From assembly GCA_022822665.1 (NCBI GenBank), contig JAJEAR010000030.1:64363-128362 (forward strand): a stretch of 64,000 nt of DNA, given 5' to 3'. Position 1 is the stretch's first letter. Each line of letters opens with the position of its first letter. The translations under genes were made by a program, and so were the position numbers. The notes under the pieces were generated by a model, which was not told the DNA's origin, did not search any database, and saw nothing but the letters and a program-made list of their open reading frames with translations. Origin of the DNA: Alphaproteobacteria bacterium. GTDB taxonomy: Bacteria; Pseudomonadota; Alphaproteobacteria; Thalassobaculales; Thalassobaculaceae. Positions 3,530 through 60,488 of this stretch are shown here, piece after piece.

Positions 3530-5410
3530 GTGAGTACCATGGCCGGGCTAACGCGCGATGACCAGCATCCGGTAGAGATCTTCAAGCGCTCGACGGAGGC
3601 GTGCGTGCGCGCGATGTCGCGCGAACGCGAACTCGAGGTCACCTTCGGCGCCGAGACACCGAGCATGTCCGGCGAGAAGGTCCGCCTTCCGATGCCGCCG
3701 CGCGATCTTGATCCCTACGAGATCTCCAGGGTACGCGGCGAGGCCGACAGCCTGTCGCTGCGCCGGCGCCACCACGACGCGGCGCTGCACGCGCGCCGCA
3801 TGCCCCACGGCCAGGCGGCGCGCGAGGTGTTCGAGGCGATCGAACAGGCCCGGTTCGAGGCAATCGGCGCACGGCGGATGGCCGGCGTGGCCCAGAACCT
3901 CGAGACTGCGCTCGACGACCGGTACCGGCGCCGCGGATTCGAGCGCATCAGCAACAAGGACGAGGCGTCGCTGAACGACGTGATCCGCCTGCTGGCGCGC
4001 GAGGCACTGACGGGACAGGCGCCGCCGCCGTGCGCGCGGCGCGTGATTGACCTGTGGCGTCCCTGGATCGAATCGAAGATCGGCGAGACCCTGCAGGATC
4101 TCGGCGAGGTGCTCGGCGACCAGGAGGCCTTCGCGGACCGGGCGCGGCAGATGATCCTCGATCTCGATCTCGAGATCGGCGAAGAGGGCATGTCGGACGA
4201 GGAGCAGAGCGACTCCGACGACGACGGCGAGGGTGATTCGGAAGAGATGAACGATTCCGGTACCCGCGGAACCAGCGAGGACGGGTCGGAATCGGAGATG
4301 CTGCCCTCGGAGATGGAGGCCGGGGAGGAGTCGGCCGAAGGCGAGGACAGCGACGACATGGACATGGAGCCGGGCGGCGGCGACGAGGAGCCAGCCAGTC
4401 CGGCGACCCCGCCCTACCTGCTCAATTCCGACGAACGCAAGGCGATCTACAAGGTATTCACCACGGAATTCGACGAGGTGATCCCGGCCGCCGATCTGTG
4501 CGATCCGGCGGAGCTGGCCAGGCTGCGCGCGCTGCTCGACCAGCAGCTGCACCACCTGCAGGGACTGATCGGCAAACTGGCCAACCGCCTGCAGCGCAAG
4601 CTGCTGGCCCAGCAGAACCGTTCATGGCTGTTCGATCTCGAAGAGGGCATCCTCGACGCCGGCCGGCTGTCGCGGGTGGTAACGGCGCCGCTCTACCCGC
4701 TGTCCTACAAGATGGAGAAGGACACCGAGTTCCGGGACACCGTGGTGTCCCTTCTGATCGACAATTCGGGATCGATGCGGGGCCGGCCGATCACCATTGC
4801 CGCCATGAGCGCCGACATCCTGGCGCGCACGCTGGAGCGGTGCGGGGTGAAGGTCGAGATCCTAGGCTTCACCACCCGGGCGTGGAAGGGCGGCAATTCC
4901 CGTGAGAAGTGGATGGGAATGGACAAGCCGGCCAACCCCGGCCGGCTCAACGACCTGCGCCATATCGTCTACAAGGCCGCCGAGGCGCCGTGGCGACACG
5001 CGCGCAAGTCGCTCGGGCTGATGCTGCGCGAGGGCATCCTGAAGGAGAACATCGACGGGGAGGCGCTGCTGTGGGCTCACCAGCGGCTCCTGGCCAGGCC
5101 CGAGGAACGCCGGATCCTGATGGTGATCTCCGACGGCGCCCCGGTCGATGACTCGACCCTGTCGGTCAACCTCGGCAACTACCTCGAGAAACACCTGCGC
5201 GAGGTCATTCGCTACATCGAGACGCGTTCACCGGTGGAACTGGTGGCGATCGGCATTGGCCACGATGTCACCCGCTACTACCAGCGCGCCGTGACGATCG
5301 TCGACGCCGAACAGCTCGGCGGGACGATGATGAACCAGCTCGCCGACCTGTTCGACGAGGACCAGGGAACCCGGCATCCGGGACGCGCGCGCGGCGCGGC
5401 GCGGGGCTGA
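3530..5410 (+). CDS. cobT: Cobaltochelatase subunit CobT (acidic linker + C-terminal vWA domain)
   Basis: The gene follows cobS. It has a long Asp/Glu-rich stretch (residues ~210-290) and a vWA-like C-terminus ([14 protein letters not shown]...[10 protein letters not shown]). Confidence 0.9.
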
Positions 5411-8475: not shown

Positions 8476-9534
8476 ATGCCAATGACCCGCGTCCTGCCAC
8501 CGGCATCACACCGGAAGATTCCCGCAACCGTGATCACCGGGTTCCTCGGAGCGGGCAAGACCAGCCTGATCCGCCACCTGCTCGAGACCAGCCACGGCAG
8601 TCGTCTCGCGCTCGTGATCAACGAGTTCGGCGAGGTCGGCGTCGACCGTGATGTCCTGCTCGGCTGTGGCCTCGAGTCCTGCGGGGACGAGGACGTGGTG
8701 GAACTGGCCAACGGGTGCATCTGCTGCACGGTTGCCGACGATTTCCTGCCGACCATGCGCATGCTGCTCGACCGTCCCGACCCCCCGGACCACATCGTGA
8801 TCGAGACCTCGGGCCTGGCCCTGCCCAAGCCGCTGGTAAAGGCCTTCGCCTGGCCGGAAGTCAGGACCCGCGCCACCGTCGACGGCGTCATCGCGGTGGT
8901 CGATGCCGCGGCGGTGGCCGATGGCCGCTTCGCCGCCGACCCCGGGGCGGTGCAGGCCCAGCGCCGCGCCGACGAGGCGCTCGACCATGACAGCCCGCTC
9001 GAGGAACTGTTCGAGGAACAGGTGCAGTGCGCCGACATGATCGTGCTCAACAAGGTCGACTGCGTGAGCGGACAGCAACGCGCCCGTGCCGAACGCCAGA
9101 TCGCCCGGCACGCCCGTCCGGCGGTCCGGACCGTCAGCGCCAGTCACGGGGCGGTCGACGCGTCGGTCCTGCTCGGGCTCGGAGCCGGCGCCGAAAACGA
9201 CCTGGCCTCCCGGCGCTCGCACCACGACGAGGCCGGGGAGCATGATCACCGGGACTTCGACAGTTTCGTGCTGCACCCGGGCACGATCGAGAACATCGAC
9301 CGGTTCATGGCGGGACTGCAGGACTGCATCCGTCGCCATGACATCCTGCGGGTGAAGGGTTTCCTGCATGTGTCAGGCCGGCCGATGCGGCTCGCCGTTC
9401 AGGCGGTCGGCGCCCGGCTCCAGCACTACTTCGACCGCGACTGGTCCGACGGGGAGGACCGAACTTCCAGCCTGGTCGTGATCGGACTGGACGGGATGGA
9501 TCACGCCGCGATCAGGGCCGGGATCACCGGATAG
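8476..9534 (+). CDS. cobW: Cobalamin biosynthesis GTPase CobW (COG0523)
   Basis: It has a P-loop (ITGFLGAGKTSL) and a CICC metal motif (ELANGCICCTV), and lies immediately upstream of cobN. Confidence 0.9.
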   Translation: MPMTRVLPPASHRKIPATVITGFLGAGKTSLIRHLLETSHGSRLALVINEFGEVGVDRDVLLGCGLESCGDEDVVELANGCICCTVADDFLPTMRMLLDRPDPPDHIVIETSGLALPKPLVKAFAWPEVRTRATVDGVIAVVDAAAVADGRFAADPGAVQAQRRADEALDHDSPLEELFEEQVQCADMIVLNKVDCVSGQQRARAERQIARHARPAVRTVSASHGAVDASVLLGLGAGAENDLASRRSHHDEAGEHDHRDFDSFVLHPGTIENIDRFMAGLQDCIRRHDILRVKGFLHVSGRPMRLAVQAVGARLQHYFDRDWSDGEDRTSSLVVIGLDGMDHAAIRAGITG

Positions 9535-9540
9535 CGAATC

Positions 9541-12500
9541 GTGCACCTCCTCGCCGCCACCCCGGGGCGGGCGACCAGCGCCGACGAGCCGATCGACCTG
9601 CGGCAGTCTCCCGGTGACATCGTCGTGCTGTCCGCGGCGGACACGGACCTTGCCTGTCTTGCCGCGGCCCATGCCGCCGTCCGCGCCCGGTCCGGTCCCG
9701 CGCCGAGCCTGCGGCTTGCCAACCTGATGCAGCTGACCCACAACCTGTCGGTCGATCTCCATGTCGACGCGGTGGTCGCCGAGGCGCGTCTCGTGATCGT
9801 GCGGCTGATCGGAGGGGTCGGCTACTGGCCCTACGGGATCGAGCAGATCGCGGCGGTGGCGCGCAGTCGGTCGATCCTGCTCGCCGTGGTGCCCGGTGAC
9901 GACCGGCCGGACCCGCTGCTGATGGCGCATTCGACCCTTCCGGATGCCGAGGTGGCGCGGATCTGGGCCTACCTGACCCATGGCGGTCCGGCGAACGCAG
10001 TCGCCTTGCTCGACCGTGCCGCCGCCCTGCTCGGGTACCCGACAGACTGGACCGAACCCGCACCCCTGCCGCAGGCTGGGTTGTACCTGCGCGGCGCCGG
10101 GATGACCGGACTCGACGAGGTCCGGGCCGGATGGAAACCGCATCGCCCGGTGTGCGCCATCCTGTTCTACCGGGCCCTTCTGCAGGCGGGAAACCTGCGG
10201 GCGGTCGATGCGCTGGCCGATGCCGTTGCGGCCACGGGCATGAATCCGCTCGCCATCCATGTCTCCAGTCTCAAGGATCCGGTCTCGGCGGACCTGGTGG
10301 AACGGCTGCTCGCCGAGACGGACGCGTCGATAATCCTCAATGCCACCGGGTTTGCGGTCTCGCGCCCCGGCGGCGAACGGACCGCGACCTGTTTCGACGG
10401 AGCCGACTGCCCGGTGATCCAGGTCATCTTCTCGGGCAGCGACCGTGCGTCCTGGGAAAAGTCGGCCGCCGGCCTGTCGGCGCGCGACGTCGCGATGAAC
10501 GTGGCCCTGCCCGAAGTCGACGGCCGCATTGTCTCGCGAGCGGTCTCCTTCAAGGCCGAGACCCGGTTCGATCCCGCGACCGAGTGCAGCATCGTCGGCT
10601 ACGATCCGGAACCCTGCCGGGTCGGGTTCGTCGCCGAACTTGCGGCCCGCTGGGCCCGCCTGCGCCGAGCCCCGCCGAATGATAGGCGCATTGCGCTGAT
10701 CCTGGCCAACTACCCGAACAGGGATTCGCGGATCGGCAACGGGGTCGGACTCGACACGCCGGCGAGCGTGCTGGCAATCCTCGATGCCCTGGCGGGCAAC
10801 GGGTACCGGGTCGGCACGATCCCGTCCGACACCGACGCGCTGATGCGCCGGGTCGCGTCGGGGCCGACCAATCAGTGCCCGGTGGCGCCCGGACCCGGCG
10901 AGGCGGTGACCTGGCCGCTTGCCGACTACCGGGCTTACTTCGACGGCCTGCCCGGGGCGGTGCGCGAGGAGATATCGCGGCGGTGGGGCGATCCCGCCTG
11001 CGACCCCTTCGTGGCCGGGGATGAGTTCGTTCTGCCGGCCCACCGCTTCGGAAACTGCCTGGTCGCAGTGCAGCCGGCCCGCGGCTACAACATCGATCCG
11101 GTCGCGACCTACCACGATCCGGCCCTGCCGCCGCCGCACGGCTACCTCGCATTCTACGCCTGGCTGCGGCTCGCCTTCGATGCCCATGCCGTGGTTCACG
11201 TCGGCAAGCACGGCAACCTCGAGTGGCTTCCCGGCAAGGCGGTGGCACTGTCACCCGCCTGCTACCCCGAGGTGGCACTGGGCGCGCTGCCCAACCTGTA
11301 TCCGTTCATCGTCAACGACCCCGGCGAAGGGACCCAGGCCAAGCGTCGCAGTTCGGCGGTCGTCGTCGACCACCTGACCCCTCCGCTCACCCGGGCCGAA
11401 ACCTATGGCCCGCTTCGCGAACTCGAGGCCCTGGTCGACGAGTATTACGAGGCGGCAGCACTCGATCCGAGGCGTCTGGGGCCGCTCGGCGATGCCATTC
11501 TCGATCGCTTGCAGCGGTTGCGGCTCGACATCGACTGCGGAATCGTGGCCGGTGACGGTGATGCCGAGCGGTTGCGCAAGCTTGACGCGTGGCTGTGTGA
11601 ACTGAAGGAGCTGCAGATCCGTGACGGGCTGCACGTCTTCGGCGCGGTTCCGAGCGGGCGGCAACTCGACGACCTGCTGACGGCACTGGTCCGGGTACCC
11701 CGCGGCACCGGAGACGGAGGAGATGCCTCGCTGCAGCGCTCGCTCGCCGCCGACCTCCGCCTGGGACCGTTCGACCCCCTGGACTGTGACATGGCGGAGC
11801 CCTGGACCGGGCCCAGACCGGCTGTCCTTGCCGGCCTCGATACCGCCTCGCAGTGGCGTACCGCGGGCGACACGGTGGAACGCCTGGAGTGTCTTGCGTC
11901 GAGACTGGTCTCGGGCAAAGGGAAACCAGATCCCGGCTGGACGCGGTCCCGGGCCGTCCTGCAGTGTCTGGCCACCTCCATCCGCCCGGCCGTCGATGCC
12001 AGCGGCATGGCGGAGCTCGACGGCCTCCTCGCCGGACTGGCTGGCCGGTTCGTCCCGCCCGGCCCCTCGGGTGCGCCCACGCGCGGGCGGCCGGAAGTCC
12101 TGCCGACCGGACGCAACTTCTACTCCGTCGACACCCGTGCCGTGCCGACCCCTGCGGCCTGGCAACTCGGCTGGGAGGCCGCCGGCCTGGTGCTCGAGCG
12201 CTACCGACAGGACCACGGGGCCTGGCCGCGCACCCTGGCCCTGTCGGCCTGGGGGACGGCGAACATGCGCACCGGCGGCGACGACATAGCCCAGGTGCTG
12301 GCGCTGATGGGCACGCGTCCGCGCTGGGAAACCGGGTCCGGACGCGTGACCGGGTTCGAGATCCTTCCCCTCGGGGTGCTCGACAGGCCCCGGGTCGATG
12401 TCACGCTTAGAATATCCGGCTTCTTCAGGGATGCGTTTGCGGCCCAGATCGCGCTCATCGACGGGGCGGTCCGGGCGGTGGCGGCACTCGACGAGCCCGC

Positions 12501-27940: not shown

Positions 27941-28929
27941 TTGGATGACGAAGCCACGCTCGCGGAGATCCGGCGCGCCGCCCGGGCGGTGCTCGACGCC
28001 TGACCCGAGGCCAGGGCGGCGGTGCTGTTCGGATCACGGGCGCGGGGGACCCACGGGCCGCACAGCGACTGGGACATCGCCTTCATCACCGCCGGAGACG
28101 GCGATCGCCGCGACGTCGTCCCGGACGGCCTCCCGCTGCGGCACGAATGCCTCCGGAACGAGGTCAACGACATCGCCATTCCGGAGAAGCTCGTCGAGTG
28201 CAAGGCGCTCTGCATCGGTCACGTCGGCCGGGGGATCGCCGTCGATGGCCGGGTCCTCGCCGGGGACTGGTCCAGGCCGAAGATGGAAGGGGTGCCGGTG
28301 ATGAACCCGGAAAGGTACAAGAGATCGCTCTACGCCTCGCTTGGCAGGATCGAGGTGGCAATCGGAGCCTCGGCCGATATCGAGCGCGCGCCGGGTCGTG
28401 ACGATATCTTCGAGAGAGTCGACCGGTTCGTGGCTGCCGCCGCCGATGCGGCAGAACATCTGGCCAAGGCCGTCATGGGTCGCCACGGGATCGACGCCTG
28501 GCACACCCATGACCTGAAGAACTCGCGGGCCAGGCGCGCCAGGCCGGCCTCGGGACGCTGGCTGACGACGTCGCCCGCATGAACGGTGCTGCGAGACACG
28601 ACCACCTTGCCGGATACTACGGCGCGGACCGGGACAGCCTTGCCCACGCCATCGACCGGGTGCCGGTCATCCTGAATCTCACGCGCAGGGAACTGGCCGC
28701 ACTCGAAGCGGATTTTCTCAACCCGCAGGAGACAGCGAAGTTGCTGACCGCTGCCGCCAGACGGTTCCGAAGAGCGACCACCGCGCTTCGGGCTGCGATC
28801 GAGCGCGACGGGGCGGACATGATGCTGCCGGCGCCCGTCGACTGGGTCACGCCGCTGCTGTGCACCCGCAGGGCCCTGGCGGCGGCGCTCGACGATGCGG
28901 CCAGTGTCCTCGAGCGGGACGACCGGTAG
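27941..28929 (+). pseudogene. Nucleotidyltransferase (MNT-like)-HEPN fusion gene, disrupted (in-frame TGA at 28001-28003, frameshift near 28511-28520)
   Basis: The NTase motif is LFGSRARGTHGPHSDWDIAF. The 5' extension LDDEATLAEIRRAARAVLDA*PEARAAVLFG is in frame, and the stop aligns with Trp in the paralog at 34670..35317. The HEPN-like tail (THDL.. then ELAGQARQ...ARHDHLAGYYG) continues in another frame (ORF 28579..28929). Confidence 0.65.
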
Positions 28930-34669: not shown

Positions 34670-35317
34670 TTACGGAAGAGCACCTTCATCGGGCCGCTGC
34701 GCGGCGAAGGCTGCGACCGGTCGGGCGATGTCGTGGCTGCGGTCAGCGGGCACGCCGCGTCTCTCCTTCGCCGCCTTGACCAGCAACTCGGCGGCGTCTG
34801 CGCTGTTTCGCAACAGGTGCGAGCAATTCCTGCCGCTGCCAGCCCACAGTGGTCTCTGCGCAATCTTCCAAATCGGCGCAATGGCGGCATCGGCCGGCGT
34901 TACCACCAGCCCCATCCTGTACGTCCAGTCTTCCGGGTTCATGGCGGCATCCCTTTCCATTCGCGCCGGTTCCGGTCTGTTCCAGTCGCCCGCGAGTACC
35001 CTGCCGTCGCGGCAGATGACGTAGGGGAGGGTGCCGAGAGTACAGGCGCGCCGCCGCAGATGATTCTCGGACAGCGCCCAGACATCGACATGGGGCAGAT
35101 CGGCCAGCATCTCCTGTCGCGGAAACACCGACGTCGCCAGATCCGGATGACGGGGTGTGTCGCCCTCAAGCACGATGGCGATGTCCCTGTCGCTGTCGGG
35201 TCGCTGCGTTCCGCGCGCCCTGGAACCAAACAGCACTGCGGCCTGGGCACGTGGCCACAGACGAAGCGTCTCCCGACAGGCGGCGGCCAGGTCCCGTTCG
35301 GTAATGACAGCTGACAT
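34670..35317 (-). CDS. Nucleotidyltransferase (MNT-like)-HEPN fusion protein, paralog of 27941..28929; C-terminus probably frameshifted
   Basis: ORF trimmed to ATG 35317 (MSAVITERDLAAACRETLRLWPRAQAAVLFGSRARGTQRPDSDRDIAIV...). It shares GRVLAGDW(N/S)RP and the HEPN-like AAELLVKA...RSHDI with the paralog. The sequence after the stop continues HEPN-like in another frame (..FRNGA..). Confidence 0.7.
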   Translation of the reverse strand: MSAVITERDLAAACRETLRLWPRAQAAVLFGSRARGTQRPDSDRDIAIVLEGDTPRHPDLATSVFPRQEMLADLPHVDVWALSENHLRRRACTLGTLPYVICRDGRVLAGDWNRPEPARMERDAAMNPEDWTYRMGLVVTPADAAIAPIWKIAQRPLWAGSGRNCSHLLRNSADAAELLVKAAKERRGVPADRSHDIARPVAAFAAQRPDEGALP

Positions 35318-51989: not shown

Positions 51990-53339
51990 ATGAACCTGGT
52001 CGAGACTGCTGCTGATGGTGCCGTTCCGATCGTCCCGGTGCTCGCGGGTGAACTGCCCGACGGGAACGGCTGGGCACGCGCAACGGGGTTCGAGGCCAGG
52101 CCGGGCGATTTCAGGTTCGTTCCCGACGAGGCCGGGAGCCTCGCCAGGGTTCTGGTCGGGCTCGACCCGTCCCGGAACATGTGGAGCCTCGCCGGGCTGC
52201 CGGCAAGCCTGCCCGAAGGCGACTACAGGGTGGACGCGCCCGGCCTCGATGCGCACCAGGCGACGCTGTGGTCGCTTGGCTGGTCGCTCGGCTGTTACGC
52301 TTTCGACCGGTATGCCGCGAAGCCCCGCCCCGGAGCGCGGCTCGTGGTGCCGGACGGCGTTGACCTTGCCGAGGTCGAGCGCTGCGCGTCAGGCATCGCG
52401 CTGGTCCGTGACCTCATCAATACACCGGCATGCGATCTCGGCCCGCGTGAACTGGCCGAAACAGCCCGGGCCGTCGCCGGGGACGCGGGCGCCTCGATCT
52501 CGGTAATCGAGGGGGCCGACCTGCTGGTTCACGACTATCCGAGCATCCACGCCGTGGGCCGGGCGGCGGCAAGGCCACCGTGCCTCATCGACATGCGGTG
52601 GGGCGAACCCGGGCATCCGGCCGTGACCCTCGTCGGCAAGGGGGTGTGCTTTGACAGCGGCGGGCTCGATATCAAGTCGGCTGCCGGCATGCTTCACATG
52701 AAGAAGGACATGGGTGGGGCCGCCCAGGTGCTCGGACTGGCACGGATGATCATGGGAGCCGGGCTGCCGGTTCGCCTCAGGGTCCTGATCCCGGCGGTGG
52801 AAAACGCGATTTCCGGAGATGCCTTCAGGCCGCGCGACGTGTTGCAGACCCGCAAGGGGCTGACCGTCGAGGTGGGCAACACCGATGCGGAGGGCCGGTT
52901 GATCCTGTCCGACGCGCTGGCGGAGGCCGCAAGCGAGCGGCCGGAGATGATTGTCGACTACGCGACCCTGACCGGAGCGGCCCGGGTCGCGCTGGGAGCG
53001 GACCTGCCGGCACTGTTCTGCAACGACGACACGCTTGCAGGAGAGATCCTGCGCAGCGGCGAGGAGCAGGAGGATCCACTGTGGCGGATGCCGCTTTGGC
53101 CCGGCTACCACAGCCACATCGACTCGAAGGTGGCGGACATCTCGAGCACCGGTACCGGCGGCCTGGGCGGCGCGATCATCGCGGCACTGTTCCTGGAGCG
53201 TTTCGTGCAGGAGGATATCGCCTGGGCCCATATCGATCTCATTGCCTACAACCAGGCCGACCGGCCGGGGCGGCCGGAAGGCGGTGAGGCTCAGGCCCTG
53301 CGAGCCGTCTACGGCATGATTCGCAGTCGGTTCGGCTGA
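51990..53339 (+). CDS. M17 leucyl aminopeptidase family protein
   Basis: ORF 51825..53339 trimmed to ATG 51990 (MNLVETAADG...). The catalytic motifs GKGVCFDSGGLDIK and NTDAEGRLILSDAL are present. Confidence 0.9.
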   Translation: MNLVETAADGAVPIVPVLAGELPDGNGWARATGFEARPGDFRFVPDEAGSLARVLVGLDPSRNMWSLAGLPASLPEGDYRVDAPGLDAHQATLWSLGWSLGCYAFDRYAAKPRPGARLVVPDGVDLAEVERCASGIALVRDLINTPACDLGPRELAETARAVAGDAGASISVIEGADLLVHDYPSIHAVGRAAARPPCLIDMRWGEPGHPAVTLVGKGVCFDSGGLDIKSAAGMLHMKKDMGGAAQVLGLARMIMGAGLPVRLRVLIPAVENAISGDAFRPRDVLQTRKGLTVEVGNTDAEGRLILSDALAEAASERPEMIVDYATLTGAARVALGADLPALFCNDDTLAGEILRSGEEQEDPLWRMPLWPGYHSHIDSKVADISSTGTGGLGGAIIAALFLERFVQEDIAWAHIDLIAYNQADRPGRPEGGEAQALRAVYGMIRSRFG

Positions 53340-53593
53340 GCCGCCCGGGTCATCAGTACCCGAGCGCGGGGTCCACCAGGTTATCCGGAAGCCGTCCGGC
53401 GGCGACCCGCCTGATCGCGGCCGCAACCTGGTCCAGCGCGGTCGCCGGGTTGGTCTGGGCGGAGACATGCGGCCAGACCCGTACCGCCGGGTGGGCCCAG
53501 TATGCGTGTTCCGGCGGCAGGGGCTCGGTGTGGAACACGTCGAGTGCCGCGCCGGCAACCTGGCCGCTGTCGAGTGCTGCGAGCAGGTCCTCG
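53154..53593. repeat. Left copy of a 440-bp direct repeat (3' end of the M17 peptidase gene + intergenic + 3' end of the ghrA-like gene)
   Basis: My base-by-base alignment to 59357..59796 found 7 mismatches in 440 nt at a constant offset of 6203 nt. Confidence 0.95.
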
Positions 53594-53650
53594 ACAATCC
53601 CGCGGTCGGGAAGCCGCGCCCAGAGATGGCGCGGGCGGCACACGGCATGT
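53353..53650 (-). pseudogene. Truncated copy of the 2-hydroxyacid dehydrogenase (ghrA-like) gene at 59556..60488
   Basis: The last 80 codons are near-identical to the full gene. Bases 53594..53650 then resemble 60001..60050 (20 identical nt, then 19/24), which implies a ~204-bp internal deletion. No N-terminal half is present. Confidence 0.85.
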
Positions 53651-53797
53651 CTGCTCTGTGCAGAAACTGGTCTGCCGGCCATTGTTGGGATCCACTCTGT
53701 CTCGGTAGCCGCGACATGTCGGAAGCATACAACTGACGGAGCCCGGTCTTGCCGGTACAACCGGTTTGATGCGGTTCTGTGCGGACGCCAACTGGGT

Positions 53798-54583
53798 CTA
53801 CTGGTACCTTTCGCCTATTGCTACGGAGCCCGCATCGCTCGCTACCAACAGTTCTCGCCAAAATCTCTCCAACTTACTGCGACGTTTAGGTCCCAGCGGC
53901 GAGCGCGCTGGATCATGTAGGCGACCTACCCCGAAAACCACCACGGGGACACCTGACACCTGAGGAACCAAGTTCAATTCTTTTACCGTTGCAATCATCG
54001 ACTTGAAGCTACCACGAGAGATCATTGGCCATGGAAAGATTAGCGAATTCTCTAGTAAATCCGAAAACACGACTACTCTGGATAGTCCACCCGAATAGTA
54101 AAGAGCTGTTACACTGGCTAGCGTCTCTACGATTGCTGATCGTGGATACTTCTCATGCTCCAATAATACGACTCGAAGCTTGCTCGCCAATCCAGACCGA
54201 AAGTCGATTCGATCAGAGCGCGCCAACCCGCCCCTACAGGTGCTAAAGAGCCACGAGGCTATTCCCTCTTCGGGGCATCCCGGGTAACAGCTATCGAAAA
54301 TCTTGTCCGACTTTGTCCTGTCATCGGTAATTGTATGAACTATGAGTCTATCGCCTATGTTGAGATCTTCATAGAGTTTCGTGAGGCCTTCCGCAAGCAT
54401 TTCGCGATCGATAGCGTCATAAAAGGTTGTCCTGTCGACTATTAATAGTGTTGTCTTGTCACTAAACTCGCAATACTGGTTGCGGGCTTCGGCATGTTCC
54501 CAAAGCAAGACCAGTAAAACAAGTGCAACAGCGGACAGCACTGTCTGAGTGCATTGTAATTTACCCACAATGTTATGTCGCAT
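53798..54583 (-). CDS. Exported/membrane-anchored vWA-like (Rossmann-type, no MIDAS motif) protein of unknown function
   Basis: This is a 261-codon ORF in AT-richer DNA. It has an N-terminal hydrophobic anchor or signal (TQTVLSAVALVLLVLLWEHAEA). The strand pattern is TLLIVDRT / DRLIVHTI / SAIVETLASV / RVVVFSDLLEN / VPVVVFGVG. Four Cys lie in the exported part. The start overlaps the upstream stop by 11 nt. Confidence 0.7.
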   Translation of the reverse strand: MRHNIVGKLQCTQTVLSAVALVLLVLLWEHAEARNQYCEFSDKTTLLIVDRTTFYDAIDREMLAEGLTKLYEDLNIGDRLIVHTITDDRTKSDKIFDSCYPGCPEEGIASWLFSTCRGGLARSDRIDFRSGLASKLRVVLLEHEKYPRSAIVETLASVTALYYSGGLSRVVVFSDLLENSLIFPWPMISRGSFKSMIATVKELNLVPQVSGVPVVVFGVGRLHDPARSPLGPKRRSKLERFWRELLVASDAGSVAIGERYQ

Positions 54584-55844
54584 GAAGTTCCTTAACGATT
54601 ATCTCGGGATTTGGCGTCACAAAGCACTCCGGTACGTCCTCACCGTTTCGAGCCGATCTGTTGCCTTTCTGGTAAGCCAAAAGCCGTAGAGCGACTATTT
54701 CTGATACCATTCCCAGAATTTCAGGCCTACGAGCTTCGATCATCTGTAACTTGTTTCTCACCCTCTCTATTTCCTCTTCCGTCTGGTCTAGTTGTCGGTC
54801 GAGGTAATTGATGCGCCGATCATGCTCCGTAGACAAGATAGTTGCTCTCTTCTGGAACGTTTCTTCAATCTTATGCATGCGCTTTTGAATTCGAGCCCGT
54901 TCTTTGGTAACCTTCTCATAATCCGGATGGGGATCATGTCTCATATACGCGGCCACCATTCCAACCAAAAATATAAGGATATTGATTACAAGCAGCATAA
55001 ATCCCGCGGTACCCAGTTCAACGGACAGAGCTTCATCCGCTAAAGTACCAAGTGCCGACACATCCCCCTGAAGCAAAGTGCTAAATTCAGTTGTTTGTTC
55101 GCGCTCCAATAGGTTGACATAGCTTTGTCTTAGTGCAGCGATAAAGTAGATTGTAGTGCCCACGACAACAAAGGTAATGGCGATGCCAACGTAGTGAAAG
55201 ATCTTGGAGGATTTGCCGGACGAATGATCAATTTGTCGTAACCACAGTCCAGAGAAATGAGCGCAAAACATAATTATGAGGCCAATCACTAAGGCAATAA
55301 ATAGACTGATCGCGGGAGTCTCCCGAAAGAAAAATTCAAAAGCAAAACGGTTAACAGGAACTTCCGCCAAGGCTAACAGTGAAAGAAGCGGGAAATAAAT
55401 CCATACTATGGAAGTTCGCAAGGGTCTTTGGACTTCTAGCTCGATGCGCTTTTCGCTTTCCTTAGCGCCACTAAGACGGTCAGACAACTGTATATACCTT
55501 GCGGAATGACGTCCAATGCGCTGATCGAGAGCGTCAAGCTTTGCTTTCTTTGCTTCTATTACGTCGTCACGTTGGCGAACATAATGTTCATCTCGATTTC
55601 GTTCTTGAGCACTAATGTCGTTTTGAAGGTTTTCACGAATCGTCCGTAAGCCGAGTTCGAAGTCCCCCATGGTCCGGCGAGCATGTGCAATCACTTCGTG
55701 CTGGAAAGGGTACTCGGAGGCGGCGCTTGTCGGGAAGCCGCGTTTGCCGTCGTTCCTGCCGACATTCTCGTCGCGGCGTGCCATTCGTTCATTGAAAGCG
55801 CGATAGAAGGCTAGGGCCTTGGCTTCATGCTCGTCGTAGTTCAT
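54573..55844 (-). CDS. Coiled-coil / four-TM membrane protein of unknown function
   Basis: ORF 54573..56015 trimmed to ATG 55844 (MNYDEHEAKALAFY...), with GAGG 8 nt upstream. The product is 423 aa. It has a charged heptad-like N-terminal ~140 aa, TM segments at ~145-161, 177-202, 215-238 and 279-301, and a charged C-terminal ~120 aa (KVTKERARIQKRMHKIEETFQKRA...EEEIERVRNKLQMIEARR). Confidence 0.75.
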   Translation of the reverse strand: MNYDEHEAKALAFYRAFNERMARRDENVGRNDGKRGFPTSAASEYPFQHEVIAHARRTMGDFELGLRTIRENLQNDISAQERNRDEHYVRQRDDVIEAKKAKLDALDQRIGRHSARYIQLSDRLSGAKESEKRIELEVQRPLRTSIVWIYFPLLSLLALAEVPVNRFAFEFFFRETPAISLFIALVIGLIIMFCAHFSGLWLRQIDHSSGKSSKIFHYVGIAITFVVVGTTIYFIAALRQSYVNLLEREQTTEFSTLLQGDVSALGTLADEALSVELGTAGFMLLVINILIFLVGMVAAYMRHDPHPDYEKVTKERARIQKRMHKIEETFQKRATILSTEHDRRINYLDRQLDQTEEEIERVRNKLQMIEARRPEILGMVSEIVALRLLAYQKGNRSARNGEDVPECFVTPNPEIIVKELHAT

Positions 55845-56147
55845 CGTTCTAGCCTCGTGGGTGTCCTGTTTGAAAATGATAGCTTGCTTGACCGAATAGA
55901 TTGAATGAGATGATGTTAGGTGTCGTATCGACTGAGGGCAATAGGGTACTGTATCTGGGGCATGCTGTGGTGGCTTATGCCTACCGAACCGGGCTTGCGT
56001 CTGTTGCGACGGCACTGATGATGCCGTCGGACGCTGCGTCCGATCGGCGTGTCGGTGTGGGTGGTGTCTTGTGGCTGGAGGGGACTGAGATGGATTGCCA
56101 TCCGTGTCCTGAGGATTCGGTTCCGGGACCTGGCCGCTAGTGTCCTG

Positions 56148-57285
56148 TCATTCGTCAAATGTTGGATAGTGGCGTTTGAGTTTCACGCAGGCATCATCGG
56201 TGGCGAACTGCCAGTCCACCTTGGCGTGGATGCGGTCTCGGGAAGCCTGCCAGGCGGCGACTTCCCGGCGTAGCTCCTCGATGCAGTTGATGCGGCGGTT
56301 CAGGCACTGGCGGATCATGACATTGATTTCCACCTCGGCCACGTTCAGCCAACTGCCGTGTTTGGGGGTGTAGACGAACTCGAAGCGGTCCCACAGGGCC
56401 TTGGCCTCGTCCGGCGGGTAGCCCTCGTAGAGGGCTCCGGGTCGATGAGTGCTGAGATTGTCCATCACCAGTGTGATGGTGGTGGCATCCCGGTAGCGCT
56501 TGGCGATGTCGGCCAGAAACTGTGCCCAGTCGATCTTGGTCTTGCGCTCGGTCACCTTGGTCATGCGCCTGCCGGCCAGGGGCTCTGTAGTCATGAAGAC
56601 GTTGCAGGTGCCGCAGCGTCGATACTTGTAGTCTTCACGCGCTGACCGTCCCGGCGCCATAGCGACCGGTTGGCGTGTCTCGCCGATCCGCTGCCGAGGT
56701 GTTTCGTCAATGCAAACCACGGGGAAGGCGGCATCATAGGGGCGTCGATAGACATCGAGCACCTTCTCCATGGCCGCGGCGAAGGAGTCGGCGTTGCCTT
56801 GAGGAGGGATCACCCACCCGATCCGCTGCCATGGCTTGAGGCGGTTTTTTTAGGACCCGCCGCACCGTCTCGTGCGACACGGCATTGATGTAGCCAAGCT
56901 CGACGACGCGGTCGGCCAGCAGCCTCAACGACCATTGCGCGTGACCCTCGGGCGGTTCGCCACAGCTCAAGGCCACCAGGCGCGCCTCGAAGGCGCCGTC
57001 GGCCTTTCGCATGTAGGTGGGACGACGTCCCTGCCGGCCACCCAGCGCCGCCTCGAGACCCTCTTCCACGAAACGCTTCTTCACCCGGTCTACCTTGCGC
57101 ATGCTGATGCGCAGAATCCCGGCAATGACTTCCCCAGTCACCTGACGTTCGTTGAATGCGCCTTCGTCGCAGTTGAGCAGGATCAGGGCGTTGATCACCT
57201 TCTGCGACAGGTGCGAACCCTTGGTCGTGATGTCCGAAAGTTCTTCCCGTTCCGCCTCGTCCAGGGTCACCACATAGCGCTTCAT
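56148..57285 (-). CDS. IS630-family DDE transposase, encoded in two overlapping frames (HTH part 56845..57285, DDE part 56148..56852)
   Basis: The N-terminal frame reads MKRYVVTLDEAEREEL...RRVLKK. The second frame continues NRLKPWQRIGWVIPPQGNADS...CIDE...VMDNLSTH...GSWLNVAEVE. The junction lies in an A8 run. Confidence 0.85.
56845..56852 (-). other. A8 homopolymer at the junction of the two transposase frames (possible programmed frameshift site or an indel)
   Basis: The plus strand reads gcgg-TTTTTTTT-agg. The frame switch needed to join the HTH and DDE parts maps exactly here. Confidence 0.6.
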
Positions 57286-57618
57286 GCTCCGACCTCCGTC
57301 CCGAAAGGACGGATAGTCTAGCATAATTCGTACGACACATCATAGTTGACATGACACTAGGGCCGACTGATGAAGGACACCGACTTGCTGAAGCGCCTTG
57401 TACCGCATTCTTGTTTGAATTGTCATGGTCCCTTTCATCGATCGCCGCCTTGGGACGGCGCCATGGCCGGAAAGTACAGCACGAGGAGTTCTGCCGCCAG
57501 AACACCGCTCAGTTGCGGTTCGCGATCATCGTGTGGTTGCTGGCATTGCTTCTGCCAAAGGGTATCCTGTGGCGGGAATCCAGACCCTGTCCGGGCAGGA
57601 TCGAACGACACCGGATGG

Positions 57619-58186
57619 CTACACATGGTGTGTCTCCGAAGCGACCGTCGAGTGCCGGTACCGCGCCGCACAGAAGGCCGATACCGGTCCCAGGGGCGTC
57701 CCGCGCCGGCGTTCGGATACCGAACATCGTCGCAGTATTAGCCCCGCGCTGCTCAAGGCTGTGCGGTAAGTCTCCGATGCCGAATGATGCGAGCCGTGGG
57801 TCAGGTTCGGGTGATCCGTCTGGCCACGAGCCAGGCACGAGAGTGCCCGGGCGCGCCACGACCGGACATCGACATGCCCGCAAGCCACACAGGTCTGGCT
57901 GGTATGGCGAGGATCGACCGCAGTCACCCAGTGTGCTCTTGTACTCTTGGTTCTGCGCGGGTTGCCTGAGTCGGTGGCAAGTGTCTCACGGTTCAGTACC
58001 GGCTCTTTGGCGTTTGTTCGCGCTTTGTGTCATGTGGAGCGGCTGCAGGTCCTCGATGACGATGGTGCTGGTCGCGTTCGCAAGTTCGCGACTGGTCCGG
58101 TGATGACAGTTGCGACGCACCATCGCGATCTGGCGCTTGGCCCTGCGCAGGTGACCGCCGTAGCGCGTCAATCTGGGTGAGACCAC
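57619..58186 (-). pseudogene. tnpB: tnpB (IS200/IS605- or IS607-family RNA-guided nuclease) remnant, N-terminally truncated and frameshifted
   Basis: ORF 57986..58186 holds ...RRNCHHRTSRELANATSTIVIEDLQ (RuvC-II-like region). ORF 57619..57927 holds VDPRHTSQTCVACGHVD (the zinc-finger context typical of TnpB). The two pieces are in different frames, and the upstream part is replaced by the IS1595 remnant. Confidence 0.7.
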
Positions 58187-58194
58187 GGAGTCTC

Positions 58195-59356
58195 AGGTTG
58201 ATTGACGCGCTGCAAGAGACCGATGAGTTGACGTGGCAGGTGCTGGAGGCCCAACTTGTTCAGGCGTATCAGCCTCTGCTGAATGTGCAACATCGCTAGT
58301 AGGCATGGTATCGTCTTCCAGCTATGTGGTTTGGGAGGTTCGCTGCCTTTCTAGCTTCGCCCCGTCTGGTTCCCGCTGCGGGGCATTGCGATTTCTACGG
58401 TTCAGCAATCCGGATGGTATCCAACATTTTGTTGCTACGGAAATTCTCGGTAATCTTCACATGCGAAGCATCAAAGAAGGCCATACATGCCGATCCGATT
58501 GAGCGCTTGGCTGCCGATCGGGAGGGATAACCCTGACTGCTGCGGGCTATAATAGCACCGTGAGGCGAGCAGCCTTACGTTGTGCCGCCCGGCGAACTCT
58601 TGCACATAGCGATCCAGATGCCTCGGCGACAGCTTGTGGAACGTGCCCGTGTGGCTGCGCTTCAACATCGACCAGAAACTCGCCATGCCGTTCGTGTGCG
58701 TCAGCTCATTCACGTAGTACCCGGCCCTGTGATTGACTGCCCAATGGGCCAAGTCGCTCTCAACGCCGCGATAGTGTCTGTCCTGGCCTCTTTGGAGGGT
58801 TGCGCCCTCTTGGGTGATCTCCAAGGCGAAGCCTTGTGATATCTCTCTGTTCGTGTTGATAATGGCTTCTGCGTGGTCTCCGTTCGTGTCGTAGTCGTTG
58901 ATGCCGATGATGGCCATTTTGCTGACACCGCCGCGCTTGGCGCTGGCCTCGTAGAGCTCCTTGCGTTGCGCGATGCTCATGGTCTGGGGATTTCCGCTCG
59001 TGTAGGTCTCGTCGACTTCGACCGGTCGGTTAAACTGTTAATCATCGGTAACCGCTTAGGCCTCGCGTGTTCGGTGCAGCACGAACGTCGCCGTCAGCTG
59101 CGAAATGGCGATCTCCCGTTGCAGTTTCTCGGACGAGATGGATTTGAAGCTCGTGACGCAGAGGTAGACGGCGATGGCCCACTTGCCGAGCGGAATCTTC
59201 GACGCTTGCAAGGCGTTGCCTGTATTCGCGCTGAAATAGGACGGACAGCGCGGTGCGCCAGTAGAGCATTTTCTTGTAGCTGGCGGGACGGGTGTGGCGG
59301 CTGCCGCAATTCAAACAGAACCGCCCGTCCGGCCAAATAGGTCTCTTGAATCAGGC
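58195..59356 (-). mobile_element. Decayed IS1595-family (ISXO2-like) element
   Basis: Transposase pieces lie in three frames with in-frame stops. These are WPDGRFCLNCGSRHTRPA..., then ..FSANTGNALQASKIPLGKWAIAVYL...FVLHRTREA*, then ORF 58471..58980 with THTNGMASFWSMLKRSHTGTFHKLSPRHLDRYVQEFAGRHNVR. The ends share CAAGAGACC / GGTCTCTTG (58216..58224 vs 59340..59348). Confidence 0.75.
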
Positions 59357-59542
59357 ACCGGCGGCCTGGGCGGCGCGATCATCGCGGCACTGTTCCTGGA
59401 GCGTTTCGTGCAGGAGGATGTCGCCTGGGCCCATATCGATCTCATTGCCTACAACCAGGCCGACCGGCCGGGGCGGCCGGAAGGCGGTGAGGCTCAGGCC
59501 CTGCGAGCCGTCTACGGCATGATTCGCAGCCGGTTCGGCTGA
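59357..59542 (+). pseudogene. 3' fragment (last ~61 codons) of the M17 aminopeptidase gene, duplicated
   Basis: The translation ...TGGLGGAIIAALFLERFVQEDVAWAHIDLIAYNQADRPGRPEGGEAQALRAVYGMIRSRFG* equals the C-terminus of 51990..53339 apart from I->V. There is no upstream coding continuation. Confidence 0.9.
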
Positions 59543-59796
59543 CCCGCCCGGGTCATCAGTACCCGAGCGCGGGGTCCACCAGGTTATCCGGAAGCCGTCC
59601 GGCGGCGACCCGCCTGATCGCGGCCGCAACCTGGTCCAGCGCGGTCGCAGGGTTGGTCTGGGCGGAGACATGCGGCCAGACCCGTACCGCCGGGTGGGCC
59701 CAGTACGCGTGTTCCGGGGGCAGGGGCTCGGTGTGGAACACGTCGAGTGCCGCGCCGGCAACCTGGCCGCTGTCGAGTGCCGCGAGCAGGTCCTCG
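59357..59796. repeat. Right copy of the 440-bp direct repeat
   Basis: See 53154..53593. It starts exactly where the IS1595 remnant ends. Confidence 0.95.
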
Positions 59797-60488
59797 TCCA
59801 CGATATGGGCACCGCGGGCGGCATTGATCACGAAGGCGCCTCGGGGCAGCCGGTTCAGCGTGTCGCGGTTGATGATGCCGCGGGTCGACGGGGTAAGCGG
59901 CAGCAGGCAGCACAGGACATCGGTCCGCGCCAGGAAGTCGGAGAGCTGGCCGCTCCCTGAATACACCTCCACGCCTTCGACCTGGCGCGCCGTCCTCGCC
60001 CATCCCGCGGTCGGGAAGCCGAGTCCCGAGATCGTGCGGGCGGCATGAAGTCCGAGTGCGCCCAGGCCCATGATGCCGACCCGGCGTTCCGAGGTCTCCG
60101 GCGGAGGCAGCACGCGCCACCGGTGCTGTCGGGCGAGCGCGTCGTACTCCGGGCCCTGACGATGGAAGTACAGCAGGTTGAGCAGGATCCACTCGGTCAT
60201 GGATTGCGACATCCACGGATCCACCAGTCGCATGATCGCGATGTCGCGTGGCAGGTCGGGATCGAGGAACAGGTGATCGACACCCTGTCCGAGCGAACAG
60301 ATGCAGCGCATGCCGGTCATCCCCGCGTAGCTGCCGGGCGGCAGGTCCCACACCATCGCAAACTCGATCTCTCCGGGATCGCCGATGTCCGGCCAGACCC
60401 GGAAGTCCAGCCCGGGTATCCGTGCCGCGAGACCGTCCCTCCAGGCATCGGGCGAGGCGAGCGCATCATGAAACATCACCACCGGCAT
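59556..60488 (-). CDS. D-isomer-specific 2-hydroxyacid dehydrogenase (glyoxylate/hydroxypyruvate reductase A-like)
   Basis: It has an NAD motif (VGIMGLGALGLHAA) and the catalytic region NAARGAHIVDEDLLAALDSGQVAGAALDVF. The start is either MPVVMFHDAL (60488) or 60518. Confidence 0.85.
   Translation of the reverse strand: MPVVMFHDALASPDAWRDGLAARIPGLDFRVWPDIGDPGEIEFAMVWDLPPGSYAGMTGMRCICSLGQGVDHLFLDPDLPRDIAIMRLVDPWMSQSMTEWILLNLLYFHRQGPEYDALARQHRWRVLPPPETSERRVGIMGLGALGLHAARTISGLGFPTAGWARTARQVEGVEVYSGSGQLSDFLARTDVLCCLLPLTPSTRGIINRDTLNRLPRGAFVINAARGAHIVDEDLLAALDSGQVAGAALDVFHTEPLPPEHAYWAHPAVRVWPHVSAQTNPATALDQVAAAIRRVAAGRLPDNLVDPALGY

Follow-up and report, generated by a model that had tools for sequence, protein, structure and literature searches.

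Here we consider a 64-kb window (contig JAJEAR010000030.1, positions 64,363 to 128,362) from the genome of a Thalassobaculaceae bacterium, in which the genes of an M17 leucyl aminopeptidase and of a GhrA-like D-2-hydroxyacid dehydrogenase (ghrA), facing each other tail to tail, are separated by an island. The island comprises a two-gene cassette, an IS630-family insertion sequence (IS), and remnants of a tnpB gene and of an IS1595-family transposase gene. It is bracketed by two 443-bp direct repeats, each containing the 3' ends of both host genes, and its structure is consistent with ordinary homologous recombination as the route of entry, no dedicated integrase or transposase being required. 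The features of the locus are listed below; J1 and J2 are the two junctions of the island, and L numbers denote genomes and contigs used for comparison.

51990–53339, plus strand: intact M17 leucyl-aminopeptidase gene, 449 amino acids (Pfam Peptidase_M17, E = 8e-100; NCBIfam leucyl aminopeptidase); the left repeat copy includes the last 61 codons
53151–53593: left repeat copy (peptidase 3' end, spacer, ghrA 3' end); single copy in L003, L004, L005 and L017
53353–53593, minus strand: proximal ghrA 3' fragment, the last 80 codons, in frame; the protein is identical to the end of the intact gene
53587–53593: heptamer GTCCTCG at the joint of a 202-nucleotide (nt) deletion; the intact ghrA has this heptamer at 59790 and 59992
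53594–53640, minus strand: distal ghrA piece, 47 nt, matching 59999–60045 with 7 differences, 4 of them amino-acid-changing
53640/53641: junction J1, from the ghrA fragment to island DNA; no IS end; reproduced in L001, L002 and L033
53641–53797: 157-nt spacer downstream of cassette gene 2; no counterpart at the other cassette loci
53798–54583, minus strand: cassette gene 2, 261 amino acids; predicted N-terminal membrane helix and fold similar to the von Willebrand factor A (vWA) domain, four invariant cysteines
54573–55844, minus strand: cassette gene 1, 423 amino acids; long coiled coils, approximately four membrane helices, GC content 46–49%
56140–57357, minus strand: IS630-family element with terminal inverted repeats GTGTC(C/A)TGTCA; TA at 56138–56139 and 57358–57359
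57820–58153, minus strand: frameshifted C-terminal remnant of TnpB (IS605 OrfB-type; Pfam Cas12f1-like_TNB)
58471–59353, minus strand: IS1595-family transposase pseudogene, truncated at both ends, with internal frameshifts and a stop codon
59353/59354: junction J2, from the truncated IS1595 gene to the peptidase 3' fragment; GG microhomology at most; reproduced in L016 and L020
59354–59796: right repeat copy, from the repeat alignment
59354–59542, plus strand: non-functional peptidase 3' fragment, 61 codons and the stop; in L016, an 82-amino-acid open reading frame (ORF) with a weak Peptidase_M17 match
59556–60488, minus strand: intact GhrA-like D-2-hydroxyacid dehydrogenase gene, 310 amino acids (Pfam 2-Hacid_dh_C); the right repeat copy includes the last 80 codons

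The repeat copies are 98.2% identical and align at a constant offset of 6203 nt with eight substitutions and no indels, a match far above the chance level. Each copy contains the last 61 codons of the peptidase gene with the stop codon (53337–53339 in the left copy, 59540–59542 in the right one), a 13-nt spacer and, on the opposite strand, the last 80 codons of ghrA. A preliminary description, made from the sequence alone, had given repeats of 440 bp (53154–53593 and 59357–59796) with seven mismatches at the same offset; these seven sites (53217, 53327, 53340, 53446, 53503, 53515 and 53578) are confirmed, and with one more at 53153/59356 the repeat extends to 443 bp. Its account of the repeat contents agrees with the sequence, and that of the interior (cassette, IS630, tnpB remnant, IS1595 remnant) with the domain scans. 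As it stated, the peptidase is whole via the left copy and the dehydrogenase via the right copy, both host genes being undamaged. The window peptidase has an identical counterpart on contig L018, as does the window GhrA on contig L017; the dehydrogenase matches the NCBIfam GhrA model over the full length, although with a sub-threshold score (237 bits, cut-off 403). In base composition, only the island stands out in the window, its GC content being 46–60% compared to approximately 67%.

Relatives were sought by a dehydrogenase scan of one genome per species, a scan of JGI metagenomes and a look-up of exact proteins. Three metagenome-assembled genomes of Thalassobaculaceae were matched, with nucleotide identity of 96.2–96.8% (L003), 94–95% (L004) and 90–93% (L005); the JGI scan added only L021, a duplicate of L004, and the exact-protein look-up yielded L017 (run SRR8304786), a contig from a 99.5% identical strain. 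In L003, L004/L021 and L005 the peptidase is directly convergent on ghrA, the 443-bp segment is present once and the flanks of the window align to overlapping coordinates; the site is likewise empty, with a single 443-bp copy, in L017. This is the empty site that the preliminary description had proposed to look for in related genomes. Approximately 10 kb of the left flank and 4.6 kb of the right flank are collinear with the empty-site relatives, and hence the island is the only added DNA. The opposite finding it had considered, the duplicated architecture in relatives lacking the island, was seen in none of the relatives compared. Thus, the insertion at the tail-to-tail junction is real and lineage-specific.

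The comparison with L017 also shows that mosaic polymorphism is locally elevated at the insertion site: the 443-bp segment differs from the window at 5 of 443 positions (1.1%), and the adjacent flanks at 2 of 910 and 2 of 1254 (approximately 0.2%). In a scan for a donor tract, the number of window-specific substitutions along both flanks ranged from 0 to 10 per 250 nt, with no clear step.

Seven of the eight differences between the copies fall in coding sequence: six are synonymous third-position substitutions and one is a conservative replacement (Ile/Val); the remaining difference is intergenic. If the differences had accumulated in dead fragments with no selection, at least six synonymous ones out of seven would be observed with P of approximately 0.003. 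As they are mostly synonymous, they arose in functional genes of two lineages, not in dead fragments. The haplotypes at nine sites (53153, 53217, 53327, 53340, 53446, 53503, 53515, 53518, 53578), with L003–L005 as outgroups, are as follows.

Left copy: T A T G C T C C T
Right copy: C G C C A C G C C
L017 (empty site): T G C C C T C T C
L018 (left flank, from a sample without a branch at the repeat entry): T A T G C, where the contig ends
Outgroup majority: C G C C C C G C C

At 53340, the outgroups have C in L003 only, and A in L004 and L005; L005 also deviates at 53153, 53515 and 53578. Left-copy alleles are found both on the empty-site contig L017 (53153T, 53503T, 53515C) and on L018 (53153T, 53217A, 53327T, 53340G), and all five substitutions that separate the population from the outgroups are present in both copies. 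These patterns indicate that most left-copy alleles circulate in island-free strains, the right copy being near the ancestral state, and that the two copies represent alleles of the population, not products of decay. The allele sharing and the outgroup pattern are predicted by a merger of the alleles of two strains, and not by duplication in situ followed by mutation. Hence the donor would likely be a related strain, as the preliminary description suggested from the divergence of the copies; the predominance of synonymous differences and the presence of the alleles on empty-site contigs from other samples support this. A single crossover at 53516–53577 would partition all alleles coherently, and other placements, or none inside the repeat, fit equally. 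L017 was also considered as a possible excision product and rejected, since its haplotype requires at least three switches between left- and right-copy alleles.

Neither junction of the island is an IS end: a search for terminal inverted repeats and other inverted repeats, and the alignment of IS1595 proteins, revealed none at J1 or J2. The repaired IS1595 frame, aligned to five full-length relatives (324–330 amino acids), starts at residue 33 and lacks approximately 35 last codons. Thus, J2 cuts the gene at residue 33, the 5' inverted repeat of the element is gone, and J2 is best described, judging by the sequence, as an illegitimate joint within a gene. Inverted repeats bounding the island were sought, with only chance-level matches; an 11-mer spanning J1 has matches inside IS1595, approximately four being expected by chance. 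An IS or transposon insertion with target duplication was considered and rejected given the position of J2 at IS1595 codon 33, J1 without an IS end and the duplication of 443 bp, in agreement with the preliminary description, which had argued that this is not an IS target duplication. The scanned island ORFs contain only DDE_3 and helix-turn-helix (HTH), IS1595 and TnpB domains or no domain, with no integrase domain in Pfam or NCBIfam; no tRNA and no Rfam family was found in the 64-kb window. The IS1595 remnant DNA and the cassette proteins had no match in plasmid and phage collections, nor was there any among IMG/VR viral contigs.

The only seemingly complete IS, the IS630-family element, is situated in the middle of the island and has its own TA duplication. 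Its transposase is split into two overlapping ORFs, 56148–56813 and 56734–57324 (Pfam DDE_3 and HTH_32; NCBIfam transpos_IS630). A run of seven A (T7 on the plus strand, 56845–56851) is located just upstream of the overlap of the HTH and DDE ORFs (the 56734–56851 region), and the split could reflect either programmed frameshifting or a frameshift mutation. The breaks of contigs L001 and L016 fall within this element (56926–56980), not at its ends.

The left ghrA fragment has a more complex history. Its proximal part differs from the right copy at four positions, all synonymous and in the third codon position, and the 443-bp repeat as a whole looks freshly derived from functional genes. The ghrA similarity does not end at the repeat boundary: positions 53587–53640 match ghrA 59992–60045 at 87%, past a 202-nt deletion between two GTCCTCG heptamers. 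As the match continues beyond the deletion to 60045, the captured host segment once reached at least 692 bp into the locus. The distal piece lacks two or three substitutions common to the window ghrA and L017, and is nearer to L003. Given its four amino-acid changes and the lack of these population substitutions, J1 and the deletion appear to be older than the 443-bp repeat, or to come from a more distant lineage. The simplest account would be that the part of the fragment that has a homologous partner was replaced or refreshed by homologous recombination, either in the integrating crossover or in a later exchange, and that the distal piece escaped this, being isolated behind the deletion.

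Both junctions were also assembled independently of the window from KELL22-1 short reads (ENA ERZ23491076 and Logan SRR16351689), on contigs L001, L002, L016, L020 and L026. The window intervals covered by four of these are given below.

L026: 41099–53208, KELL22-1, 100% identical to the window
L001: 53523–56980, containing J1, KELL22-1, 100% identical to the window
L020: 57276–59386, containing J2, KELL22-1, 100% identical to the window
L016: 56926–64000, a 203-kb scaffold, KELL22-1, 3 mismatches to the window

Starting in the right flank, L016 passes through the entire right copy and J2 into the island. L026 and L001 end 55 nt inside the left copy, as expected of a graph with k = 55 at a repeat. 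In a second sample (SRR22586461), contig L033 contains J1 with 2 mismatches in 2771 nt, and the left-flank contig, which differs at 26 of 10396 positions, breaks at 53183, that is, at the repeat entry plus k = 31. As both J1 and the break at the repeat entry are observed there, the same architecture is probably present in a slightly different strain.

Taken together, the duplication, the allelic copies and the illegitimate joint make it quite probable that the locus was formed by one homologous exchange in the segment of the peptidase and ghrA 3' ends and one illegitimate joint, J2. Our preferred variant is Campbell-type integration, in which a circle made up of the island and a host arm would enter by a single crossover; we assign to it a probability of roughly 0.55. 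In this scenario, the foreign DNA (the two-gene cassette and IS debris) would already have been joined to ghrA at J1 in an earlier or donor lineage, where the crippled ghrA fragment later would have lost 202 nt via microhomology slippage. A piece of approximately 6.2 kb, beginning at position 53151 inside the peptidase gene, including J1 and the island and ending within the IS1595 gene, would then have closed as a non-replicating circle, the closure joint being J2. Finally, the circle would have recombined once, via the host RecA, with the intact locus of a related strain (insertion-duplication). As a result, the arm would be duplicated with the island between the copies, and each host gene would retain a complete copy; both genes would survive because the arm spans two gene 3' ends.

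The expected geometry is indeed observed: direct repeats of a single continuous stretch of host DNA flank the insert, and in the uninserted locus this stretch is present in a single copy with the outer flanks adjacent. Such events have been described in Escherichia coli, where in a screen aimed at homology-facilitated illegitimate recombination (HFIR) DNA that had been partly degraded and re-circularised entered by a single crossover in 56 of 60 events; 14 sequenced single-crossover events had 109–950-bp duplications flanking the insert (PMC3240628). Precise excision via the repeats, also expected in the preliminary description, is plausible, since they contain identical runs of 56–109 bp.

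Several observations weigh against the integration of a circle. Neither a circle, nor an excision product, nor a donor genome having J1 without J2 was found among the assemblies compared, and a 6-kb non-replicating circle would also need a way to pass between cells. The allele pattern is explained no less well by a linear one-ended integration, whichever way the DNA was transferred. The distal 47 nt of the ghrA fragment, with four amino-acid changes, seem long dead, whereas the proximal 244 nt have only synonymous differences; this contrast is not predicted by a one-step circle from an old pseudogene donor, and hence later refreshment or a mosaic donor must be added. Lastly, the only three mismatches between L016 and the window in their 7-kb overlap (59530, 59543 and 59649) all are in the centre of the right copy, and in each of them L016 has the left-copy allele, which may reflect either short-read repeat collapse or gene conversion between the copies. 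Thus, of the preliminary description, the structure stands, as does the reading as insertion-duplication; the layout does not by itself lead to its circle and single crossover, as linear HFIR would produce the same layout and alleles, and it had missed both the 202-nt deletion and the 47-nt continuation.

The main competitor, which we consider unlikely, is this linear one-ended integration by HFIR, with no circle involved. In one version, an island-bearing fragment would anchor homologously on the left, and its free end would join illegitimately at 59354; to produce a duplication instead of a deletion, this version needs two sister chromosomes. In the other, more canonical version, a wild-type fragment (the peptidase 3' end, ghrA and the right flank) would anchor homologously in the right flank, and its free left end would join inside the IS1595 gene of an island strain with broken ghrA, thus restoring ghrA and duplicating the 443-bp overlap. 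HFIR is a documented process (PMC3240628), and the illegitimate J2 inside a gene, with 2-nt microhomology, agrees with it, as do the copies being distinct functional alleles; J1 and the distal ghrA piece also look older than J2, as would be expected if a ghrA-disrupted island strain came first. However, no such ghrA-disrupted ancestor was found among the assemblies compared, true HFIR accounted for at most 4 of the 60 E. coli events, against the 56 single-crossover duplications (PMC3240628), and HFIR alone leaves unexplained the repeat-flanked geometry common to three cassette loci (see below).

Quite improbable, in our opinion, is an event in situ on one chromosome, where foreign DNA would be captured at a broken or stalled fork with template switching, and approximately 690 bp of the target would be duplicated upon insertion, similarly to a giant target-site duplication, the copies diverging afterwards. 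The insert between direct target copies is compatible with this geometry, and both junctions are illegitimate. However, the copies would have been identical at the start, and six synonymous, one conservative and one intergenic differences do not resemble the decay of a dead fragment; given the alleles common to empty-site strains, extra exchanges between strains would be required anyway. In addition, the copies at another cassette locus (L035) are 6% different with the fragment still in frame, and 443-bp direct repeats would be expected to be quickly lost by recombination, which argues against long residence.

An assembly artefact, in which the chromosome would be empty and the island with one 443-bp copy would come from a free circle or another strain and be threaded into the contig, seems highly improbable. 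A circle and an empty chromosome would yield the same assembly graph, and the termination of L026 and L001, assembled from short reads, 55 nt into the left copy, as well as the location of all three mismatches of L016 within the repeat, could be explained in this way. However, eight spread-out differences make the copies distinguishable, and L016 is continuous from the right flank through the full repeat into J2 and the island; it is for these two reasons that we regard the artefact as unlikely. The window assembly also spans both copies plus an IS630, and the second sample reproduces both J1 and the break where the repeat is entered.

Next to negligible is the chance that an integrase supplied in trans acted on an element similar to cis-mobilizable ones (CIME-like), or that transposition left a long target duplication: although elements entering gene 3' ends (e14 and phage 21 in icd) bring a substitute for the 3' end, with imperfect direct repeats as the result, here no integrase domain is seen in the scanned island ORFs, the flanks, collinear with island-free relatives, hold nothing beyond the DNA of the latter, there is no tRNA, the ends are not conserved among cassette loci with three different target genes, J2 lies inside a truncated transposase gene, and the only complete-looking IS is in mid-island with its own TA duplication.

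The cassette pair is not restricted to this locus, being found as a low-GC two-gene islet at unrelated chromosomal places. Two of these, L035 and L011, come from other metagenome genomes. In L035 it is flanked by 273-bp direct repeats (1277–1549 and 4092–4364), 93.8% identical, with 17 substitutions and no indel. The fragment there is in frame, whereas the other copy forms the 3' end of an intact gene of an ATP-binding cassette (ABC) permease, the boundary being at the permease stop codon. In L011 the direct repeats (2592–2881 and 4582–4871) are 290 bp long and 99.3% identical, the junction cuts cassette gene 1 short, and the other copy corresponds to the 3' part of a near-intact gene of a staphylococcal nuclease (SNase)-like protein. 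The geometry is the same in the window, L035 and L011: an arm copy comes first, then an upstream end that is variable or truncated, followed by genes 1 and 2, 46–211 nt, and a second arm copy, which belongs to an intact (in L011, near-intact) convergent host gene. Thus, the repeat-flanked state is observed at three of approximately six examined cassette loci, with arms diverging by 0.7–6%; no such flanking repeats are present in L015, L012/L013 and L034, and the cassettes of L015 and L013 look like simple insertions. The 404 kb of DNA examined contained a single further pair of direct repeats within 8 kb at the thresholds of 200 bp and 90% identity, formed by tandem EamA paralogues. A conserved end or an att-like motif was also sought across the cassette loci, and nothing is shared beyond approximately 40 nt upstream of gene 1.

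Two pairs of contigs show variation at a cassette locus. L011 and L015, from related genomes, have the cassette at the same place just downstream of pheT (L011 2400–2600, L015 6560–6740); in L015 it is complete without a flanking repeat, while in L011 gene 1 is truncated and the 290-bp host repeat is present. These may be the simple and derived states of one locus. L012 and L013, from two samples, contain the same cassette locus (approximately 8780–10430) with and without a DDE_Tnp_1 IS just downstream of gene 2; upstream in L012 (5292–5427 and 5782–5922) there are dispersed repeats of 110–140 nt with a GGGGGGTTGTTCCT core. In the window itself, the only other repeat found at the sensitivity that revealed the 443-bp pair is a 70-nt inverted match with 77% identity (28015–28084 and 35174–35243).

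The recurrence of this geometry, although seen at only three loci, favours a process in which the cassette exits with one host arm and returns through this arm, rather than a one-off accident. Such a process would involve the formation of a circle, similarly to aberrant excision, and then a single crossover. We may tentatively go further and suggest, as a possible but doubtful generalization, that the cassette is a recombinase-free mobile unit with captured host DNA: the repeats would release a circle of the cassette and the arm, the latter serving as a portable RecA attachment site. If this is true, the repeat-flanked state would be regenerated in related cells, and the geometry shared by three of approximately six loci would be explained.

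The cargo is a very rare protein family without assigned function. Among 5.8 billion proteins, there are 13 clusters of homologues of the 261-residue protein and 26 of the 423-residue one; the two genes overlap by 11 nt and have the GC content of 46–49% in a 67% GC genome. Neither protein belongs to a family in Pfam, NCBIfam or PADLOC; with the PADLOC defence models, only weak coiled-coil matches of a 480-residue ORF were obtained (the best with E = 6e-4, 16.7 bits), and nothing for the 261-residue protein. The family of the latter is characterized by the motif FSDLLENS..PWP. Its AlphaFold2 model (mean predicted local distance difference test, pLDDT, 84.7) has Foldseek matches to von Willebrand factor A, integrin I and Sec23/24 trunk domains with E-values of 1e-5 to 1e-3 and, for the single-domain matches, template modelling (TM) scores of 0.35–0.55 on the target length. 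The model thus predicts a membrane-anchored vWA-like protein. The 423-residue protein is all-helical with the invariant motif RHDPHPDYE, and the fold search yielded generic coiled coils only, with no fold match.

Most accounts of gene gain invoke integrases, transposases or two-armed homologous replacement. The locus described here is a clean natural case of one homologous arm and one illegitimate joint, in which both neighbouring genes have been kept; any simple insertion at this site would destroy a gene. The 443-bp repeats leave a built-in route to loss or re-mobilization. If the general cycle of exit and return is true, ordinary recombination could be an under-recognized vehicle of small islets in environmental Alphaproteobacteria.

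As to known systems, elements that enter gene 3' ends by means of an integrase (e14 and phage 21 in icd, tRNA-targeting islands) rebuild the 3' end of the target gene, so that, similarly to our locus, the island is flanked by imperfect direct repeats of a gene 3' end and does not disrupt the target gene. Unlike them, the window has no integrase in the scanned island ORFs, no conserved core and no tRNA, and the targets of the cassette vary by genome. Transducing genomes of the lambda gal and bio type arise when aberrant excision takes adjacent host DNA, and their re-entry via host homology duplicates the homologous segment. The exit of an element with a piece of the host is the common trait; here, however, there is no phage, integrase or packaging, and the excision would be illegitimate and performed by host enzymes.

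In the Neisseria minimal mobile elements, cassettes between conserved genes are swapped by homologous recombination (PMC3787668, PMC3082526). They share with the window a small cargo without mobility genes, presence in some strains only, a conserved locus and reliance on host recombination. However, they use two arms and a double crossover with no duplication; in the window there is one arm and it is duplicated, and hence the island was rejected as a minimal mobile element.

HFIR, known from transformable bacteria and E. coli, likewise imports non-homologous DNA by one homologous anchor and one illegitimate joint poor in microhomology. It usually deletes the recipient DNA between the anchor and the joint, producing a duplication only in special geometries, whereas the window contains a duplication. 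The Campbell insertion-duplication, as in laboratory insertion-duplication mutagenesis and in the E. coli events (PMC3240628), likewise produces few-hundred-bp direct repeats of one contiguous host segment, and both there and in the window each copy is continuous with its natural outer flank. The window differs from these examples in being a natural event in an uncultured bacterium, in that the proposed circle would have neither a plasmid backbone nor a replication gene, in the closure joint located in a dead transposase gene, and in the arm having its own older deletion. Thus, the type of the event is a textbook one, Campbell-type or one-ended recombination, and the window provides a natural example of it; the recurrence of the cassette is the part worth following.

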